Source of the DNA: a virus
DNA: 64,000 bases
Strand: one strand, 5' to 3'
Virus record (IMG/VR): IMGVR_UViG_3300028043_000001
Span: 1 to 64,000 of that record
The notes below the pieces were generated by a model. That model searched no databases, had not been told where the DNA came from, and worked only from the letters and a program-made list of their open reading frames with translations. The number at the start of each line of letters is the position of its first letter. The stretch's first letter is position 1. Of the stretch, positions 5,482 through 24,859 are shown one piece after another. The translations under genes were made by a program, and so were the position numbers.

Positions 5482-6237
5482 TTGCAATCGGTTTTTGTAA
5501 AATGTAGGAGTGTGGAAGAGCGCGACCAGATGCTCGAATTTCTGGAAAGGAACTTTCATGGTTTCAGATTTGAGGGTAAACTGCTCCGAATAGAGGGCCC
5601 CACTAAGACGCCGAAGGGGCTCGGCCGCACCCGAAAGCCCTCGATAGGTTTTGACTATGTAGAAGATCTTGGTTATTACTGCGCTCGGGGCTTATGTTTA
5701 TGGATAATGAGAATGTTGGACCTTCGCGAGGTTCAGGATTACGACGGGCCAATCCCTCTCTCTTTATCTCATGCCTTCATTTATAGCCCCCCTTCGATGA
5801 CAAGAAGGAAAAGGTGGGGAGGGACTGGGTCTATGTTAGCTTCCCCGGACTATGTGAAGATCGTGGTAGGTGAGTTGGAAAGGTTAACAAATGCCTGGTT
5901 TCTGGAAAAAGGTTCTAAAGATTGCTTGCTCCCGGAGGACGAAGAAAAGGCAATTTTGAAAATTCCTGAGGTTAAGAAGATTTGCAACGGAGGCAACTAC
6001 GTAGCTATACAGTGTAAGATAGGTAGATTTGATCCCCCCTACTGGCTCTTGCTAAAGGTTCGAGGGCCGGGTTCGCGGTTTAGGATTTTTGGCCCTCGAG
6101 TACCGTTCAGCTCTTGGACGGGGTTTGTTTGCCTGGGAAATATGAATAGGGGGCTGTCTCACTATTTGCGAGAAGGGGATTTTGCTTTGGCTACTACTTT
6201 GCTGGTCAGTTTTATCAAGAAGGCTAGGAGGGAATAA
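5482..6237 (+). CDS. hypothetical protein, first gene of coupled run leading into Ubl operon
   Basis: 251 aa ORF, TTG start after gggagggg; TAATG overlap with next gene. Confidence 0.65.
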   Translation: MQSVFVKCRSVEERDQMLEFLERNFHGFRFEGKLLRIEGPTKTPKGLGRTRKPSIGFDYVEDLGYYCARGLCLWIMRMLDLREVQDYDGPIPLSLSHAFIYSPPSMTRRKRWGGTGSMLASPDYVKIVVGELERLTNAWFLEKGSKDCLLPEDEEKAILKIPEVKKICNGGNYVAIQCKIGRFDPPYWLLLKVRGPGSRFRIFGPRVPFSSWTGFVCLGNMNRGLSHYLREGDFALATTLLVSFIKKARRE

Positions 6238-6872
6238 TGTTTTTTGTGAAGGCTTCTTTGAAGGTTATAAAAGATAGAGGTGTTAAATTTAAAGGGGGAA
6301 GATTGGCATGTAAAAAATGTCATGATCCCATCTTGTTTGCGACCGCAAAAATGAGGCTTTTTGGTGCAAACGGCGATGGTACAGTTTTTGATTCTCACGG
6401 ATTTATTGACTTAGCCTACCTTTTTTGTTCAAAATGTGATGGTGGTGAAGTTTATTCGTGGTCAATATGGCCAGGTGGTATAGCTTACGAGAATGAAGTG
6501 GTATTAGTAGACGGAAATTTTGGGCGGCACATTCCTGAGGTAGACCCCGCAAAGGTTTTAATTGGTGACTTCATAGGGGAAAACTTGGAGGGGCTGAAGT
6601 GGCGTTGTCGTGACCTTCGAGAAGTTGAGGACTTCGATAGGGGTCTCAAGCTCTTTGTCACAAAATATAATACCCCCAAAGGTCGAGCCGAGCTAATGCG
6701 AATCGGTGAGGAGCAAGAGGAGCACCAGCGGGGTTTACGAATTTTGGCAGAATGGCAGCAACGTCGCGAGGAGATAGGAACTGCGCTAGAGACTCCTAAA
6801 AAAGGAAAAGTTACGGTTGTGGTGCAGGATGAATGTGGTTGTAAAAGGAAGATTCGTGAGGTGAAAATATGA
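6237..6872 (+). CDS. hypothetical zinc-ribbon protein coupled to E2-like gene
   Basis: CKKC..CSKC; ATGA overlap with 6869. Confidence 0.65.
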   Translation: MFFVKASLKVIKDRGVKFKGGRLACKKCHDPILFATAKMRLFGANGDGTVFDSHGFIDLAYLFCSKCDGGEVYSWSIWPGGIAYENEVVLVDGNFGRHIPEVDPAKVLIGDFIGENLEGLKWRCRDLREVEDFDRGLKLFVTKYNTPKGRAELMRIGEEQEEHQRGLRILAEWQQRREEIGTALETPKKGKVTVVVQDECGCKRKIREVKI

Positions 6873-8011
6873 AATTTCGTGTGCAAGGAAGGGGTGACTA
6901 CCTCGAGATGTGGGATGTGATGCTTCCCCTTTTGGAGGGATTCGCTGCGAAGATCGAAAAGCACATTAACGTTCTTAACTTTCACGGCTCAAAATCATCC
7001 CCCCTAGAGGTTAAGAAGGGTGAAATCAACCTCTATTTTTGGGCTTGTCCTCCAGGGGTGGAGGCCGATAGTGGAACTCTCGAGAGGGTTTTTGGCCTCA
7101 CTCTGACTGGCGGGATGAGGGATTCTTACATACCTCAATTTGTTCCGCAAGATTATATTCAGATTCTTGATGAGGATACACCGGTTGCTTTGATCAGTAA
7201 ATCGTCCCCGGAGGTTTATGTCCTCTTCGATCTCCCTCATAGAGCCCCAGAAGAATTAACCAGGGAGGTTTTGGGTGATCTCTTGAGGCTCCTCTTGCAA
7301 GAAGCATGTATCGCAAAAGCGGAGAACCCGGAGGATGAATCTCCCGAGTCGCGGTTTGTGCAAATTTGCAATGCTTGGCGCACAAACAGGAGGAAAGAAT
7401 CTGAGTCAAAAATCCGGCGGAGTGAGCGGAGAATCAGGGAAGTACTGGAGGAATTACAAGTACAGAGACGTCGATTGGAAGAAGAAAGATTGCTCCACGC
7501 TGGTTTACTAGAATCTCTAGAACAAAGGGAGGACGAGTTTAGAAAAATGTTTAAGGGAATTTTAGAAATTAAGGGGGTAGAATGGGTTGAGGTTACTGAG
7601 AAGGGCGTGAGTGTTTTTACTGATATGATCTACCTGGATTATGCTGGGCGCTCCTATAAAATTGGGAAATTCAAAATCACCTTTGGGGAAGAGAATCCGA
7701 CGCCTGACGTTATAAACCTTTTAAATGAGAAAATTACGGGGCAGAAGTACTTCCACCACCCACATATATTTGGGGACCGTGTCCCTAAAATTTGTGGAGG
7801 GAACTTGAGCCCCGGGATGGAAAAGCTAGTTATGGAGCAGGACTTTTTGAATGCAACGGCGGTTATGATAAGATTTCTCCGCACTTTCAACCAGAGTTCC
7901 CAATATGTAGGGTGGCTGAAGAGCAATTGGGCTCCCGAGCCATTCCCGGAAAAGGGGAAGGGGAAGGTAAAGGTAAAGGTAAAGGAGAAGGTAGAGGAGG
8001 AGGACTTATGA
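6869..8011 (+). CDS. prokaryotic E2 (UBC-fold)-like protein with N-terminal domain and central coiled coil
   Basis: C-terminal HHPHIFGDRVPKICGGN resembles the UBC HPN..IC active-site motif (Cys309); adjacent to JAB, E1 and Ubl. Confidence 0.7.
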   Translation: MKFRVQGRGDYLEMWDVMLPLLEGFAAKIEKHINVLNFHGSKSSPLEVKKGEINLYFWACPPGVEADSGTLERVFGLTLTGGMRDSYIPQFVPQDYIQILDEDTPVALISKSSPEVYVLFDLPHRAPEELTREVLGDLLRLLLQEACIAKAENPEDESPESRFVQICNAWRTNRRKESESKIRRSERRIREVLEELQVQRRRLEEERLLHAGLLESLEQREDEFRKMFKGILEIKGVEWVEVTEKGVSVFTDMIYLDYAGRSYKIGKFKITFGEENPTPDVINLLNEKITGQKYFHHPHIFGDRVPKICGGNLSPGMEKLVMEQDFLNATAVMIRFLRTFNQSSQYVGWLKSNWAPEPFPEKGKGKVKVKVKEKVEEEDL

Positions 8012-8592
8012 AGGCTACTGCACCACAAAGTCTGCGAGTTTTAATTCCTTTGGAGGTGAAGCATCGACTTGATCTGTACATTCAATGCAGTCCCCTTGAA
8101 ATTTCTGGGTTGGGGGAGGCAGTTTTAATTGAGGACAACGTTTTTTACATTAAAAACGTTTTTATCTTACCCCAAACAGTTTCAGCGGCGTCCACATACC
8201 TTGCTGTTCCTGCGGTAGGACAATTTTTGACCCAATTAATCCAGGAGGGGCGCGATCCCGAATTAATAAAGGTTTGGTGGCATTCACATGCTGACATGGG
8301 TTGCTTCTGGTCATCGATTGACGACTCCACAATTGAAAAATTCAAAAATGAATGGATGATTGCAATCGTGGGAAACCATCATGGGGAATATAAAGTTCGA
8401 GTTGATCTTTACTCACCGGTTCGAGTTGTCATAGACGACCTCCAATTGGAGGTCGTCGTAGATGACCCTGATGAGGAGATGAGAGCTGAGGTGGAAGCTG
8501 AAATCGCTGCGAAGGTAATTCAGGCCCCCCTTCCCCCTGCTGTGGGCTTTAATTGGAGAAAATCTAAGTGGACGGAGGGTACTTGGCTATGA
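8008..8592 (+). CDS. JAB/MPN+ metallo-isopeptidase (Ubl processing/deconjugating)
   Basis: EISGLG and WWHSHADMGCFWSSIDD give the E..HxH-x7-S-x2-D JAMM motif; ATG 8008 overlaps E2 stop. Confidence 0.9.
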   Translation: MKATAPQSLRVLIPLEVKHRLDLYIQCSPLEISGLGEAVLIEDNVFYIKNVFILPQTVSAASTYLAVPAVGQFLTQLIQEGRDPELIKVWWHSHADMGCFWSSIDDSTIEKFKNEWMIAIVGNHHGEYKVRVDLYSPVRVVIDDLQLEVVVDDPDEEMRAEVEAEIAAKVIQAPLPPAVGFNWRKSKWTEGTWL

Positions 8593-9242
8593 TGGATTTC
8601 ATGAGACAGTTAGGCATCTTAGCTCCCCCAGAACATTTAAATTTCCCTGTTTCTGTGGTCGGTTGTGGGGGTATTGGTTCTCCGACAGCTTTAGTGCTCG
8701 CCAAAATGGGGTGCACTGATATAACGGTCTACGATTTCGATCATGTAGAGGAGCACAACCTGCCCAACCAACTTCACAAACTGTGCCATGTTGACCGCCC
8801 AAAGGTGGTAGCGGTGGCCAATGTTGCTAAGGAGTTTGCTGGAGTAAAGGTTAAAACCAAAGAAGAGAGCGTTGGCGGTGAGCACCAGTTATCGGGAGTG
8901 GTTATTTCGGGTGTTGATACAATGGAGGCCCGCCGCGAGATTTGGAAAGCGGTAAAATATAACCCCCAAGTTCATCTGTATATTGATGGTCGCATGGGGG
9001 CTGAAGTTTGCAGAATTTACTCAGTGTGGCCAATTGATCCCGAAGATGTGCGTCGTTATGAGGCCTCGTTATATTCTGACGAGGAGGCTTTAGAGCTGCC
9101 GTGTACAGAGAGGGCAATTATTTACAACGTCTTTGTTGTTGCGGGTTTAATTGGTAACCAGGTTAAAAAGTATGCAAAGGCGGAGCCTTTCGCAAAAGAG
9201 GTGATTTTAGACCTCGTCTCGCTCACCCTAATTACCGTTTAA
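8589..9242 (+). CDS. ThiF/E1-like Ubl-activating adenylyltransferase
   Basis: VVGCGGIGS, YDFDHVEEHNLPNQ, SGVDTMEAR, IDGRMG, candidate catalytic Cys in ELPCTERA. Confidence 0.9.
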   Translation: MMDFMRQLGILAPPEHLNFPVSVVGCGGIGSPTALVLAKMGCTDITVYDFDHVEEHNLPNQLHKLCHVDRPKVVAVANVAKEFAGVKVKTKEESVGGEHQLSGVVISGVDTMEARREIWKAVKYNPQVHLYIDGRMGAEVCRIYSVWPIDPEDVRRYEASLYSDEEALELPCTERAIIYNVFVVAGLIGNQVKKYAKAEPFAKEVILDLVSLTLITV

Positions 9243-9258
9243 AAAAAGGAGGAGTGGC

Positions 9259-9465
9259 ATGAAAACTGTTAAGGTTGCAAAGTTGGGAGCACCGAAGAAG
9301 GATGTCATTCTCGAGGTGCGGGCTACGATTAGAGACGTTCTCAATGAAGCAGGGTTGGATCCGGGCGGATTTGAGGTTCTTCTCAACGGCAAGGAGTCTA
9401 AACTCACCAGCTTCGTTGAGCCTGGGGATATTGTTGTTTTGGTCCCTCAAATTCGGGGAGGGTAA
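9259..9465 (+). CDS. ubiquitin-like (beta-grasp, ThiS/MoaD-type) protein ending in Gly-Gly
   Basis: 68 aa; ATIRDVL..VLLNG..VEPGDIVVLVPQIRGG*; strong SD aggaggag. Confidence 0.9.
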   Translation: MKTVKVAKLGAPKKDVILEVRATIRDVLNEAGLDPGGFEVLLNGKESKLTSFVEPGDIVVLVPQIRGG

Positions 9466-22130: not shown

Positions 22131-22367
22131 GTGGGCATGGTTCGTTGCTTAGAGTGTGGCAAGATTTTGGAAAGTAAGTCACGCCACGACTTCCAATCTT
22201 GTGGTTGCCCTAACAATACCTTTGTGGATGGTGGTGAAGACTACCTTAGATGTGGTGGTAAAGATTTATCAAAGGTGCAAGTCATCACAACCGAAGAGCA
22301 GCTCGTTCGAGGAGGAAGCCTCTCGGACTCCATTGCAACCTACTCTAAAAATAAAAAGAAGGAGTGA
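22131..22367 (+). CDS. conserved phage zinc-binding protein
   Basis: CLECGKILESKSRHDFQSCGC..VDGGEDYLR. Confidence 0.7.
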   Translation: MGMVRCLECGKILESKSRHDFQSCGCPNNTFVDGGEDYLRCGGKDLSKVQVITTEEQLVRGGSLSDSIATYSKNKKKE

Positions 22368-22372
22368 AGACC

Positions 22373-22600
22373 ATGGGTGAGTTGAGAATTTTGGACCCCA
22401 CACACGGCGACCTTAAGGTCATTTGGGATCCCAACAACGAAAACGAGGTTGAAGCAGCCCGCAACCAGTTTAACGAGCTACTCAGAAAAGGCCACCAAGC
22501 TTTTGCTGTTGACAAGGTGGGTGAAAAAGCCAAGGAAGTTAAAAGGTTTGACCCCGAAATGGGTAAGGTAATTCTCTCACCTCCAGTAAAAGGAGGCTAA
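22373..22600 (+). CDS. small Gly-Gly-terminated protein, candidate second Ubl-like modifier
   Basis: 75 aa, ends KVILSPPVKGG*; SD aaggag before ATG 22373. Confidence 0.6.
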   Translation: MGELRILDPTHGDLKVIWDPNNENEVEAARNQFNELLRKGHQAFAVDKVGEKAKEVKRFDPEMGKVILSPPVKGG

Positions 22601-22603
22601 CCC

Positions 22604-23227
22604 GTGGCTAATTGCACCAGTAGTTATATGTTGAGTTCTTGGGCAGGCAACACAGCCACCACGAATGACACAGTGTGGTACGGATGGAATACTTTTGACT
22701 CCACTACCTCTTCTTCTATTGACACCTACACTACGTGGACTAACTGGAATCTAACATTTACCACAAGTGATGTGTGGGTTACTTGGGTCTCCTATCCGAC
22801 GTTCCCCCAGGCAGTTGAATCTGAAGAGGAGTTACAAGCTCGACAGCAACGTGAGGAGGAATTGAGGCGCGAGCGGGAGGCAGAGAATGCGCTACGAGAG
22901 CAGGCTGAGGCTGCCGCCGAAGAGCTTCTTGAAGACCTCATTGGCGAGAAGGAAATGGAAGTGTTCAGGTCTACTGGGCGGATGTTGGTCAAAGGTAAGG
23001 AGTTTGACTATCTACTCCATCGCGGTGGTGCTGTACAGCGCGTGGAGAAAGACAAGATCGTCGACCTGTGCATCCATTTGCCCTACAAGGCAAAGTATGT
23101 CGATCTCGACAATGTTATCGCGCTTAAATGTTTCATTCAAGGTTGTGAAAAGGATTTCAATAAGCAGGCACATTCCCGCGGTTCTAGACCCAGGCCTGTG
23201 GAACTTCCTCTAGCCGCGAATGGTTAA
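22604..23227 (+). CDS. partner of GG protein: Trp/Thr-rich N-terminus, coiled coil, C-terminal LCIH domain
   Basis: 3 nt after previous stop; AEAAAEELL..DYLL..LCIH..DNVIALK..EKDFNKQA. Confidence 0.65.
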   Translation: MANCTSSYMLSSWAGNTATTNDTVWYGWNTFDSTTSSSIDTYTTWTNWNLTFTTSDVWVTWVSYPTFPQAVESEEELQARQQREEELRREREAENALREQAEAAAEELLEDLIGEKEMEVFRSTGRMLVKGKEFDYLLHRGGAVQRVEKDKIVDLCIHLPYKAKYVDLDNVIALKCFIQGCEKDFNKQAHSRGSRPRPVELPLAANG

Positions 23228-24211: not shown

Positions 24212-24859
24212 ATGAAGCTTGTTGAGGAGTTCTGTTCAATTCAAGGGGAGTCGTCGTATGTGGGTAGACCCTGTTATTTTGTTCGAGCTCACGGATGTAA
24301 TTTAGATTGTCAGTGGCCATGTGATACCTTGTATGCGAGAGATGAGAAAACTTTTTACGATTCTCCCATCGAACAGATAGTGAAAAGATGCCGCCAGAAT
24401 CTAGTGCCATTAGTACAACTTACTGGTGGTGAGCCCCTATTACAAATTGATGAGGCGGCAGACTTGTGCCGCAAATTGGCAGATTTCAAAACGGTTTTGG
24501 TGGAGACTAATGGCACCATCTCTATAAAGCCCTTCAAAAATGCACCTAAAAACGTTGTTTTAGTTGTTGATTGCAAAACACCCTCGTCCGGAATGCACAT
24601 TTATTTGGAAAAATTTGTTGTAAACATTCCTCATCTTCGGAAGGTTGATCAAGTTAAGTTCGTAGTTGGTAACAGGGATGATTTTGATTTTGCAAGAGGC
24701 ATAGTCGAAAAATTTAGTCTCAGCGACAAGGTCAGCGAAGTCCTTATCTCACCAGTTTTTGGCATGATAGAACCCACTAGGCTTGCTGAATGGTTGCTTA
24801 GTGAACTTCCCGCGGCAAGATTTCAAATCCAACTTCATAAACTGTTAAACGTGCGTTAG
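24212..24859 (+). CDS. queE: 7-carboxy-7-deazaguanine synthase (radical SAM)
   Basis: EEFCSIQGESSYVGRPCYFVRAHGCNLDCQWPCDT, LTGGEPLLQ, ETNG, KFVV, QIQLHK. Confidence 0.92.
   Translation: MKLVEEFCSIQGESSYVGRPCYFVRAHGCNLDCQWPCDTLYARDEKTFYDSPIEQIVKRCRQNLVPLVQLTGGEPLLQIDEAADLCRKLADFKTVLVETNGTISIKPFKNAPKNVVLVVDCKTPSSGMHIYLEKFVVNIPHLRKVDQVKFVVGNRDDFDFARGIVEKFSLSDKVSEVLISPVFGMIEPTRLAEWLLSELPAARFQIQLHKLLNVR

Follow-up and report, generated by a model that had tools for sequence, protein, structure and literature searches.

The A–B Gene Pair

The stretch of DNA under study (the window) comprises 64,000 nucleotides, positions 1 to 64,000 of the virus record IMGVR_UViG_3300028043_000001, and harbors two adjacent genes, here called A and B. 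The best explanation of the observations described below is that they form a self-contained phage module of two translationally coupled genes. The features supported by the analysis are the fold class of protein A, the constraint on its C-terminal Gly-Gly (GG), an invariant cysteine in protein B, the strict linkage of the two genes, and a strongly predicted complex between their products. Both genes had been singled out in an earlier reading of the sequence (the original prediction), in which A was taken as a divergent second ubiquitin-like protein (Ubl) and B as its conjugating or acceptor enzyme.

Gene A starts with ATG at 22373, encodes the protein MGELRIL...KVILSPPVKGG and is closed by TAA at 22598–22600. 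The original prediction described a protein of 75 residues with a hydrophobic strand and a PPVKGG end, and the reading of the open reading frames (ORFs) agrees with this description. It also placed the partner gene three nucleotides downstream, which is where the GTG of gene B is located, at 22604, three bases (ccc) after the stop codon of A. The long ORFs of the window lie nearly all on the + strand, and no minus-strand ORF of note overlaps the pair. The coordinates of both genes and of their parts are collected in Table 1.

Table 1. Positions of genes A and B, their parts, and the ThiF/E1-like gene in the window.
Feature	Position	Strand	Description
Gene A	22373..22600	+	75-residue beta-grasp protein with free C-terminal Gly-Gly; stop included; from the ORF, the AlphaFold2 (AF2) model and the family
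Codons of Gly74-Gly75, GGA GGC	22592..22597	+	serve at the same time as the GGAGG Shine-Dalgarno site for B
Gene B	22604..23227	+	207-residue partner protein; GTG start; stop included
B residues 1-66	22604..22801	+	Trp/Thr/Ser-rich, nearly uncharged, three WxxW motifs; predicted disordered
B residues 74-124	22823..22975	+	long charged helix H74-113 and short helix H115-124; candidate coiled coil/oligomerization element
B residues 125-207	22976..23224	+	predicted A-binding C-terminal domain: four-strand meander, Cys loop, two helices, one strand
Codon TGC of invariant Cys156	23069..23071	+	from the sequence and family alignments; Cys156 is among the residues touching A in the co-fold
ThiF/E1-like gene (context only)	8568..9242	+	Pfam ThiF E 4.7e-20; PADLOC E1-E2 models down to E 4.7e-10

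The C-Terminal Gly-Gly of A

The GGAGG Shine-Dalgarno site of gene B overlaps the GGA GGC codons at the end of gene A, as the original prediction had cautioned. One explanation of this overlap is that the GG is incidental, arising solely because the GGAGG ribosome-binding site of B is translated, and that A and B are functionally unrelated neighbors. The arrangement in the closest relatives agrees with it. The window and its six closest loci all use GGA GGN for the GG, followed by the stop codon, with the start of B 1–4 nucleotides further on, and altogether the window and 10 other loci encode GGAGGN, with B starting 0–13 nucleotides past the stop. The codons used across 17 loci speak against such an origin. 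A ends in GG-stop in 16 of them and in GG-Cys-stop in one, and the first of the two glycines is encoded by GGA in 11, GGT in three, GGC in two and GGG in one. GGAGG is missing from six of the 17, in which the glycines are encoded by GGT GGA (twice), GGC GGG, GGT GGG, GGG GGC and GGC GGC. One of these six is L020, where the B-like gene lies upstream of A and no Shine-Dalgarno site is needed at the end of A, which still ends in FQGG. In L010, a separate GGAGG Shine-Dalgarno site is located after the stop codon of A.

At the protein level, the GG statistics were taken from all of the best 150 among 2,463 A-family matches, aligned to the family profile. The last two profile positions are GG in 139 representatives, AG in four and unaligned in seven, the latter including tandem forms that end in RG or KG. 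The two Gly columns therefore reach counts of 139 and 143 of 150, next to 149, 148 and 145 for the Gly, Trp and Phe of the core. The chain ends exactly at the GG position in 122 of the 150, is followed by 1–5 extra residues in 18, and has longer extensions in 10. The invariance of GG in the A3 alignment (49 rows) is given by construction, as this alignment was built from 47 of the 150 representatives that have 72–80 residues and end in GG.

The terminal GG of A is thus under selection at the protein level, because its codons vary synonymously and its Gly columns are as conserved as the core residues. The co-fold of A with B, which scores 0.82 versus 0.02 for the best control, also disagrees with the explanation of two unrelated neighbors, and this explanation is considered very improbable. 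An origin of the GG from the Shine-Dalgarno site alone was ruled out by the codon variety in the 17 loci together with the 139 GG ends among the 150 representatives; the GG is not a mere by-product, as the original prediction had allowed.

Gene Linkage and Distribution

The genomic contexts of the pair were drawn from viral contigs only. When A was used as the seed, a B-like gene was present in all 14 loci, directly downstream of A in 12 of them (three of which re-find the loci L001, L002 and L004). Two loci depart from this order: in L020, B directly precedes A, and in L022, the two are fused. The adjacency, which the original prediction proposed to check, is therefore kept, by neighboring or fused genes, in every A-seeded locus. 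With B as the seed, A was found directly upstream in six of eight loci. The B sequence at L008:5990-6180 corresponds to the last ~60 residues of the protein (...KDKIADLCVHL...LPLAACM-stop), has stops upstream and no A, and is a decayed copy.

Clustering of the + strand ORFs within 6.5 kb of A placed A and B in a joint cluster in all 19 loci considered, and the next clusters were a DNA polymerase (5 of 19 loci) and a RecA-like protein (3 of 19). Such neighborhoods are made up of early genes and of genes for replication and recombination (DNA polymerase, RecA/Sak4-like, Rad52-like). The two genes are also found joined into one chain. The fused protein P0118 (238 residues) consists of A, the GG, a linker, and the helix and domain of B; P0075 (124 residues) is similar, and both retain the internal GG (PPMSGG, followed by AL...). 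These two proteins and L022 could be natural fusions or artifacts of assembly or frameshift.

The A family is almost confined to viral contigs, and the pair recurs in phage contigs that are otherwise unrelated, with a GC content of carriers from 33 to 63% (17 loci). This recurrence, together with the 2,463 relatives of A and the 24 of B, exceeds what chance would give. Pattern scans (GDTK[VI]IWD for A and the motif of B) of 185,579 bacterial and archaeal species genomes gave no relative, the patterns being too narrow to show a cellular absence. In a collection of 50,697 phage genomes, A matches one record only, Virus Rctr197k (KX853510.1, locus L025), in which a tandem A is followed by a B of 268 residues. 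The same collection contains no DNA match to the region and no tblastn match for the B of the window or of L015, and a scan of viral contigs for loci with A as the only query protein found nothing. A and B match nothing in Pfam, PHROGs, NCBIfam and PADLOC, and no description of the pair was found in a literature search whose range excluded supplements and subscription journals. The A–B pair is common in uncultured phages and is undescribed. Two side observations concern L025: a CRISPR repeat region is annotated at 2318–2572, ~1.2 kb upstream of the pair, and a second B-like paralog (6141–6980, an ORF of 279 residues with the motif LCVHDF and without its own A) is located ~1 kb downstream.

This distribution bears on an alternative in which the pair acts against the defense of the host. 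According to it, A would mimic the Ubl or C-terminal Gly substrates of Bil, Bub or the type II cyclic-oligonucleotide-based antiphage signaling system (CBASS), or else the sulfur carriers of the host, and together with B it would jam or divert a host E1-type enzyme as a decoy or a trap. The position of the pair among early, replication and recombination genes is consistent with such a role, and so are its presence in phages without their own E1 and the near confinement of the family to viral contigs, with no relative in the narrow pattern scans of the species genomes. The conjugation of Ubls by bacteria is, moreover, an established mechanism acting against phages (PMC11601603; 10.1101/2023.09.04.556158). 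Against this stands the fact that nothing ties A–B to a particular defense system and that PADLOC has no match to either protein. The GC range of the carriers also points to a wide variety of hosts, whereas the distribution of Bil, Bub and CBASS is patchy. The decoy function is considered improbable.

Fold and Family of A

A search profile made from eight A proteins was compared with 1.84 billion cluster representatives (50% identity); 2,463 of these matched at E ≤ 1e-3, of which 1,013 also reached E ≤ 1e-10. The AF2 model of A, based on eight sequences, has a predicted local distance difference test (pLDDT) score of 84 and is composed of the elements E2-6, E14-18, H23-38, E42-46, E53-56 and E65-69 (b-b-a-b-b-b), followed by the tail, where the confidence drops (mean pLDDT of 59 in the last block). 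The topology of the model is that of a beta-grasp, and the structural matches are weak. The top rows in Foldseek are PB1, RBD, ubiquitin, NEDD8, ISG15 and MoaD, with E of 0.03–0.2 and template modeling (TM) scores of 0.35–0.48. In the comparison with 48,161 chains by VIA-align, the top 50 are almost entirely beta-grasp proteins (Z 3.4–5.6, root-mean-square deviation (rmsd) 3–4.5 Å), including BubA (9eav_C, Z 3.9), TtuB, Urm1, the SAMP-like Mth1743 and three chains of MoaD; the latter are the closest to A in sequence among these matches, at 17–21% identity (Z 3.4–3.6).

MoaD itself ends in a PPVxGG-like tail. An ESM-Atlas lead also points toward ThiS/MoaD (0.75), and the last 32 residues of A align in hhalign with the Ubl of the window at a probability of 39% (E 3e-4). 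The profile of A has no sequence match to MoaD or ThiS in the PDB at E ≤ 10, and no solved relative was found by sequence. Judged by its modeled fold class and its tail, A is a ubiquitin/MoaD-type beta-grasp protein and not a member of PF02597; the fold prediction proposed as a check in the original prediction thus recovered this type. Tandem two-domain versions of A also occur (P0068, P0111, P0113, P0126 and L025:3806-4237), which have an ISG15-like layout and end in RG, KG, AG or PG.

Regions and Conserved Residues of B

Protein B consists of three regions. The first, residues 1–66, contains 17 Thr, 10 Ser, seven Trp and four charged residues, with WxxW motifs at residues 25, 45 and 58, and these WxxW columns are the sole conserved feature of the N-terminal region in the alignment. 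In the AF2 model of B, with an overall pLDDT of 76.6, residues 1–61 fall below 50 and are read as disordered. The second region is highly charged (22 of the 48 residues between 67 and 114) and forms the 40-residue helix H74–113, with pLDDT above 90, and then the short helix H115–124; on the basis of the model, the long helix probably oligomerizes. The third region is the C-terminal domain, built of a four-strand meander that ends at Cys156, a loop, the helices H167–180 and H182–188, and a strand. The motif LCIH is located in this domain, at residues 155–158. A Trp/Thr-rich N-terminus, a charged coiled coil and an LCIH domain had been noticed from the letters of the sequence, and both the composition and the model agree with this reading.

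The N-terminal arm of the B homologs carries three or four WxxW motifs, ~13–20 residues apart, in a Ser/Thr-rich and nearly uncharged background. It is absent from L005, P0002, P0015 and P0017, and from the fused P0118.

There are 24 relatives of B, besides itself, at E ≤ 0.01. In the first alignment, G131, C156, D169 and E182 are invariant, and Cys156 is present in all 25 sequences. When a second subfamily is included, which came from the A-seeded loci and carries the motif Y-C-x-H-P, the residues C156, D169 and A189 are invariant in 24 of 24. The two subfamilies are 20–46% identical to the B of the window, and the invariance of the cysteine, whose verification had been advised in the original prediction, extends across both. 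The description of B as a Cys-His partner was overstated, since His158 is common yet replaced in several homologs (CIAM, CISF, CVLL, CVAH).

The conserved residues could also be those of a cysteine peptidase or transpeptidase acting on A. In this scenario, B would trim or deconjugate A, or would link it covalently without an E1, as does the lone E2 of the E2-only CBASS by an attack on the peptide bond that follows the C-terminal Gly. The invariant Cys, the frequent His two residues on and the invariant Asp169 would suit such an enzyme, and processing would be needed in those relatives of A which have 1–5 residues past the GG (18 of 150) or longer extensions (10 of 150). A precedent is the SmE2/CdnG pair: SmE2 is reported to cleave a C-terminal GFP off CdnG and to form a covalent complex resistant to sodium dodecyl sulfate and dithiothreitol (PMC12948482). 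In 122 of the 150 relatives, the A of the window among them, the chain ends at the GG, however, and there is no peptide bond to attack. In addition, His158 is not invariant, and neither a protease nor an E2 fold was recovered. A peptidase or transpeptidase function is considered quite improbable, more so than the decoy function.

The searches with the structure and the profile of B did not lead to a known family. The wide VIA-align search returned only coiled-coil helices (Z 5.3–5.9); the long helix swamped the list, which is thus silent on the C-terminal domain. A second look with VIA gave a SAS-6 head, a polo-box and a stefin at Z ~3, and Ubc13 at Z 2.4, all of them at noise level. The sequence profile of B against the PDB gave unrelated rows only, at E ≥ 0.14, as was also the case for the profile of A. 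In BFVD, the matches are uncharacterized phage proteins only, the best being an unnamed protein of 268 residues and one of Agrobacterium phage Atu_ph07, and Pfam contains no family common to the 24 scanned members. The C-terminal domain of B has no recognized fold, and B is a new family.

The Predicted A:B Complex

The co-fold of B(95–207) with A reached an interaction prediction score from aligned errors (ipSAE) of 0.82, with 0.81–0.82 in three runs, whereas the highest-scoring of three controls reached 0.02. At least 97% of the contacts are shared between the runs, and the pLDDT of the partner is 88 or more. Of 80 solved complexes, 58 pass the mark of the tool, as do two of 110 mismatched pairs, which is a rough guide only, as own alignments were used here. 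Recall of a solved complex is unlikely, as no similar one was found by sequence. On the side of A, the interface includes residues 5, 7 and 9–13, positions in strands 3 and 5 (42, 44, 46, 65, 67 and 69) and the whole tail (70–75). On the side of B, it includes residues 130, 156–161, 164–166, 169, 172–181, 185, 188–190 and 206–207. The tail of A contacts the Cys156 loop, and Cys156 touches A. The complex is therefore strongly predicted, with the GG tail laid along the Cys156 loop in the model. A Ubl placed with its sheet face on the helix after the Cys loop, and with its tail along that loop, is reminiscent of the closed E2~Ub state.

Binding, as predicted by the co-fold, is the sole interaction with any support, and the function of the pair could end with it. 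In such a MoaD-MoaE-like complex, the GG tail would thread into a pocket of B without covalent chemistry, Cys156 would have a structural role or bind a ligand or a metal, and the output would come from the oligomerizing helix and the WxxW-bearing disordered arm of B, e.g., by the binding of a host or phage factor early in infection. The fact that E1 was not found in 9 of 10 related records and that there is no third conserved gene is consistent with this explanation, as are the A–B fusions (P0118, P0075 and L022, if natural), since fusions are typical of obligate subunits. It is also favored by the MoaD chains, which have the top identity to A (17–21%), and by the free GG at the end of 122 of 150 relatives, which leaves no residue to be removed. 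On the other hand, one Cys is strictly invariant beside the docked tail across two subfamilies that are 20–46% identical, which is more than packing usually needs, and the GG is as conserved as the core residues. No similarity of B to MoaE appeared in any search, which is weak evidence against it. The non-covalent complex is regarded as somewhat unlikely, while being a serious contender.

The E1 Operon of the Window and the Possible Source of Activation

The genome that carries A–B also contains, at 6869–9465 of the window, an operon of the E2-JAB-E1-Ubl type. The Ubl of this operon has 68 residues (GFEVLLNGKE...VVLVPQIRGG) and weak NCBIfam matches to SAMP2 and ThiS-like families, and the JAB match in the window is weak as well. 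The original prediction asked whether the pair co-occurs with ThiF/JAB, and this expectation failed. Among related virus records with A–B, ThiF is present in one of 10, and in none of the four that are at least 90% complete, and Prok-JAB is present in none of five. The single ThiF-bearing related record is a 406-kb provirus, with ThiF ~140 kb from A–B. The phage of the window, with its ThiF 13 kb from the pair, is the exception. The A–B module is independent of a phage E1, because ThiF and JAB do not travel with it. In this genome, A may nevertheless be charged by the E1 of the phage, as the original prediction suggested; this is made plausible only by the likeness of the two small proteins at their tails, as the Ubl of the operon ends in LVPQIRGG and matches the A family in hhalign at the 39% given above.

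Proposed Mechanism

The reading that is tentatively preferred here, and which we place somewhat below an even chance, is that A is a Ubl and B its dedicated Cys carrier, resembling an E2 in logic and having no detectable E2 homology. In the first step, an E1-type adenylating enzyme would activate Gly75 of A. In most carrier phages, this activator would be a host MoeB/ThiF-like enzyme; here, it may be the ThiF of the phage itself. The C-terminal domain of B would dock the beta-sheet face of A on the helix 172–181, with the tail 69–75 running along the Cys156 loop. A would then be transferred to Cys156 as a thioester or an acyl-persulfide and, finally, passed to an acceptor, with B working like an E2 or a carrier. 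The covalent nature of the chemistry, the origin of the activation and the existence of a target are inferred.

Several results weigh against this account. No covalent step was seen in the analysis, and the contact list of the co-fold is silent on which residue of A meets Cys156, so the proximity of Gly75 and Cys156 is not established. ThiF is rare in the related records, as described above, and no third conserved neighbor was found within ±6.5 kb of A in the 19 loci. With regard to A, the fold matches are weak, with no Z ≥ 8 and an rmsd of 3–4.5 Å, and none of 49 family members matches Pfam ThiS (PF02597) even at E ≤ 1. With regard to B, no E2 fold emerged: Foldseek against the PDB gave nothing at E ≤ 0.001, and Ubc13 was aligned over 88 residues at Z 2.4 and an rmsd of 4.2, beneath unrelated rows. 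The order of the elements of B is compatible with the UBC layout, and a UBC-like fold is not claimable. No Pfam match to UQ_con or Prok-E2 was obtained for B, nor for 24 members of its family at E ≤ 0.1, and no nucleotide-binding motif is present among the invariant residues of B. There are also loci which deviate from the pattern. An intact B homolog of 153 residues in L005, without the Trp-rich arm, has no A within its 7-kb locus, and the fused L022 (2453–2980) has no GG and a degenerate Cys region.

The layout of B was originally said to echo that of the E2-like gene of the window. This resemblance was not borne out, as hhalign of B with the E2-like protein gave a probability of 0.6% and no E2 family matched B. 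Homology between these two proteins is ruled out at the sensitivity of hhalign. As for the broader claim of a divergent second modifier with a conjugating or acceptor enzyme, the beta-grasp fold, the GG, the invariant Cys, the gene linkage and the co-fold sustain it in part, while the E2 homology, the His and the co-occurrence with ThiF/JAB fell away.

A more far-reaching form of the carrier model describes a minimal viral system of protein tagging. Here, A would be loaded via its GG onto Cys156 without E2, E3 or deubiquitinase, using either a hijacked MoeB/ThiF-type E1 of the host or the phage's own E1, and the coiled coil and the WxxW arm would bring A, at an early stage of infection, to its targets in the host or the phage. 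This elaboration is rather unlikely in full, less probable than a purely non-covalent complex.

Comparison with Known Systems

The carrier model can be placed beside several known systems. Like the MoaD, ThiS and SAMP carriers, A is a beta-grasp protein of ~75 residues with a hydrophobic last strand, the ending P-x-x-G-G and a free carboxylate. As in MoaD-MoaE, gene A is coupled directly to its binding partner, into which its tail is predicted to insert. In contrast to MoaD and ThiS, the family of A lies outside the reach of Pfam ThiS (0 of 49 members at E ≤ 1), and no MoeB/ThiF, MoaE, ThiG or other cofactor gene is located beside A–B in the 19 loci. Unlike MoaE, B represents a family of its own, new, which combines the invariant Cys with a coiled coil and an arm rich in Trp.

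The second group comprises the systems of Ubl conjugation. In the bacterial and phage operons of the Ubl-E1-E2-JAB type (Bil, Bub/6E; Iyer et al. 2006, PMC1779556), among which the operon of the window is counted, a GG-terminated beta-grasp protein is likewise accompanied by a Cys-bearing partner. A–B differs from the Bil and Bub operons by having no JAB, no recognizable E2 and, in 9 of 10 related records, no E1. The co-fold resembles E2 systems in that the beta-sheet face and the tail of A lie against the helix which follows the Cys loop. Unlike in E2, where HPN lies upstream of the Cys, B has the motif C-x-H after strand 4; an HPN-type motif upstream of Cys156 is absent, and the His two residues after the Cys (C-x-H, often C-x-H-P) is not invariant.

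The E2-only (short type II) CBASS is likewise an E1-free system of two components; its Cys protein is reported to act on the region around the C-terminal Gly of the neighboring protein, with which it forms a stable 1:1 complex (PMC12948482). There, the substrate is a 46-kDa nucleotidyltransferase, the E2 is a bona fide UBC homolog, and a C-terminal extension is cleaved. In A–B, by contrast, the small partner is a Ubl, in most relatives without any residue after the GG (28 of 150 have some), and no UBC is detectable in B.

Among phage proteins, the comparison concerns TAPI, the only phage Ubl mentioned, as part of tail assembly, in the passages considered of the 2006 survey of prokaryotic Ubls (PMC1779556). 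According to this survey, TAPI is similar to A in being a phage-encoded beta-grasp domain related to ThiS/MoaD with a conserved C-terminal Gly. It is located in the tail module, where a JAB/NlpC-P60 protein adjoins it, and it shares its chain with another domain. A–B, unlike TAPI, is found in early and replication neighborhoods, and neither partner of TAPI is present there.

To our knowledge, bacterial Ubl conjugation serves either host defense (Bil, Bub, type II CBASS) or sulfur-carrier chemistry, and in either case the Ubl is accompanied by an E1. The A family comprises at least 2,463 clusters at 50% identity and is locked to a single new Cys-bearing partner, without an E1, E2 or peptidase traveling along. 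If the covalent chemistry is true, phages would own a stripped-down tagging or carrier device, and two small proteins would be enough to test how a Ubl is activated when no cognate E1 is at hand. If the tagging model is true, a third kind of Ubl conjugation would exist in the prokaryotic world besides Bil/Bub and CBASS, which would be encoded by viruses and spread over thousands of phage lineages. If there is no covalent chemistry, A–B is still a widespread complex of early genes. The window is a useful test case, as A–B and a full E2-JAB-E1-Ubl operon are present in one genome and cross-charging can be tested with its own proteins.

Neighboring Genes and the Source Record

The upstream neighbor of A, at 22131–22367 (+), encodes a DUF7695 zinc-ribbon protein (Pfam E 3.9e-14; phrog_8074 E 8.1e-9). 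In the neighborhood clustering of 19 loci, this gene was not kept beside A–B elsewhere. The record from which the window is taken has 116,436 bases and is 75% complete. Identical A and B proteins are encoded on a contig of 175,249 bases, which means that this phage, or one nearly identical to it, has also been assembled at greater length. Downstream of the pair, at 24212–24859 (+), lies a candidate radical SAM gene of the QueE type, whose product matches TIGR03963 over residues 1–212 (E 2.1e-51, below the curated cut-off) and, in addition, Pfam Radical_SAM and Fer4_12.

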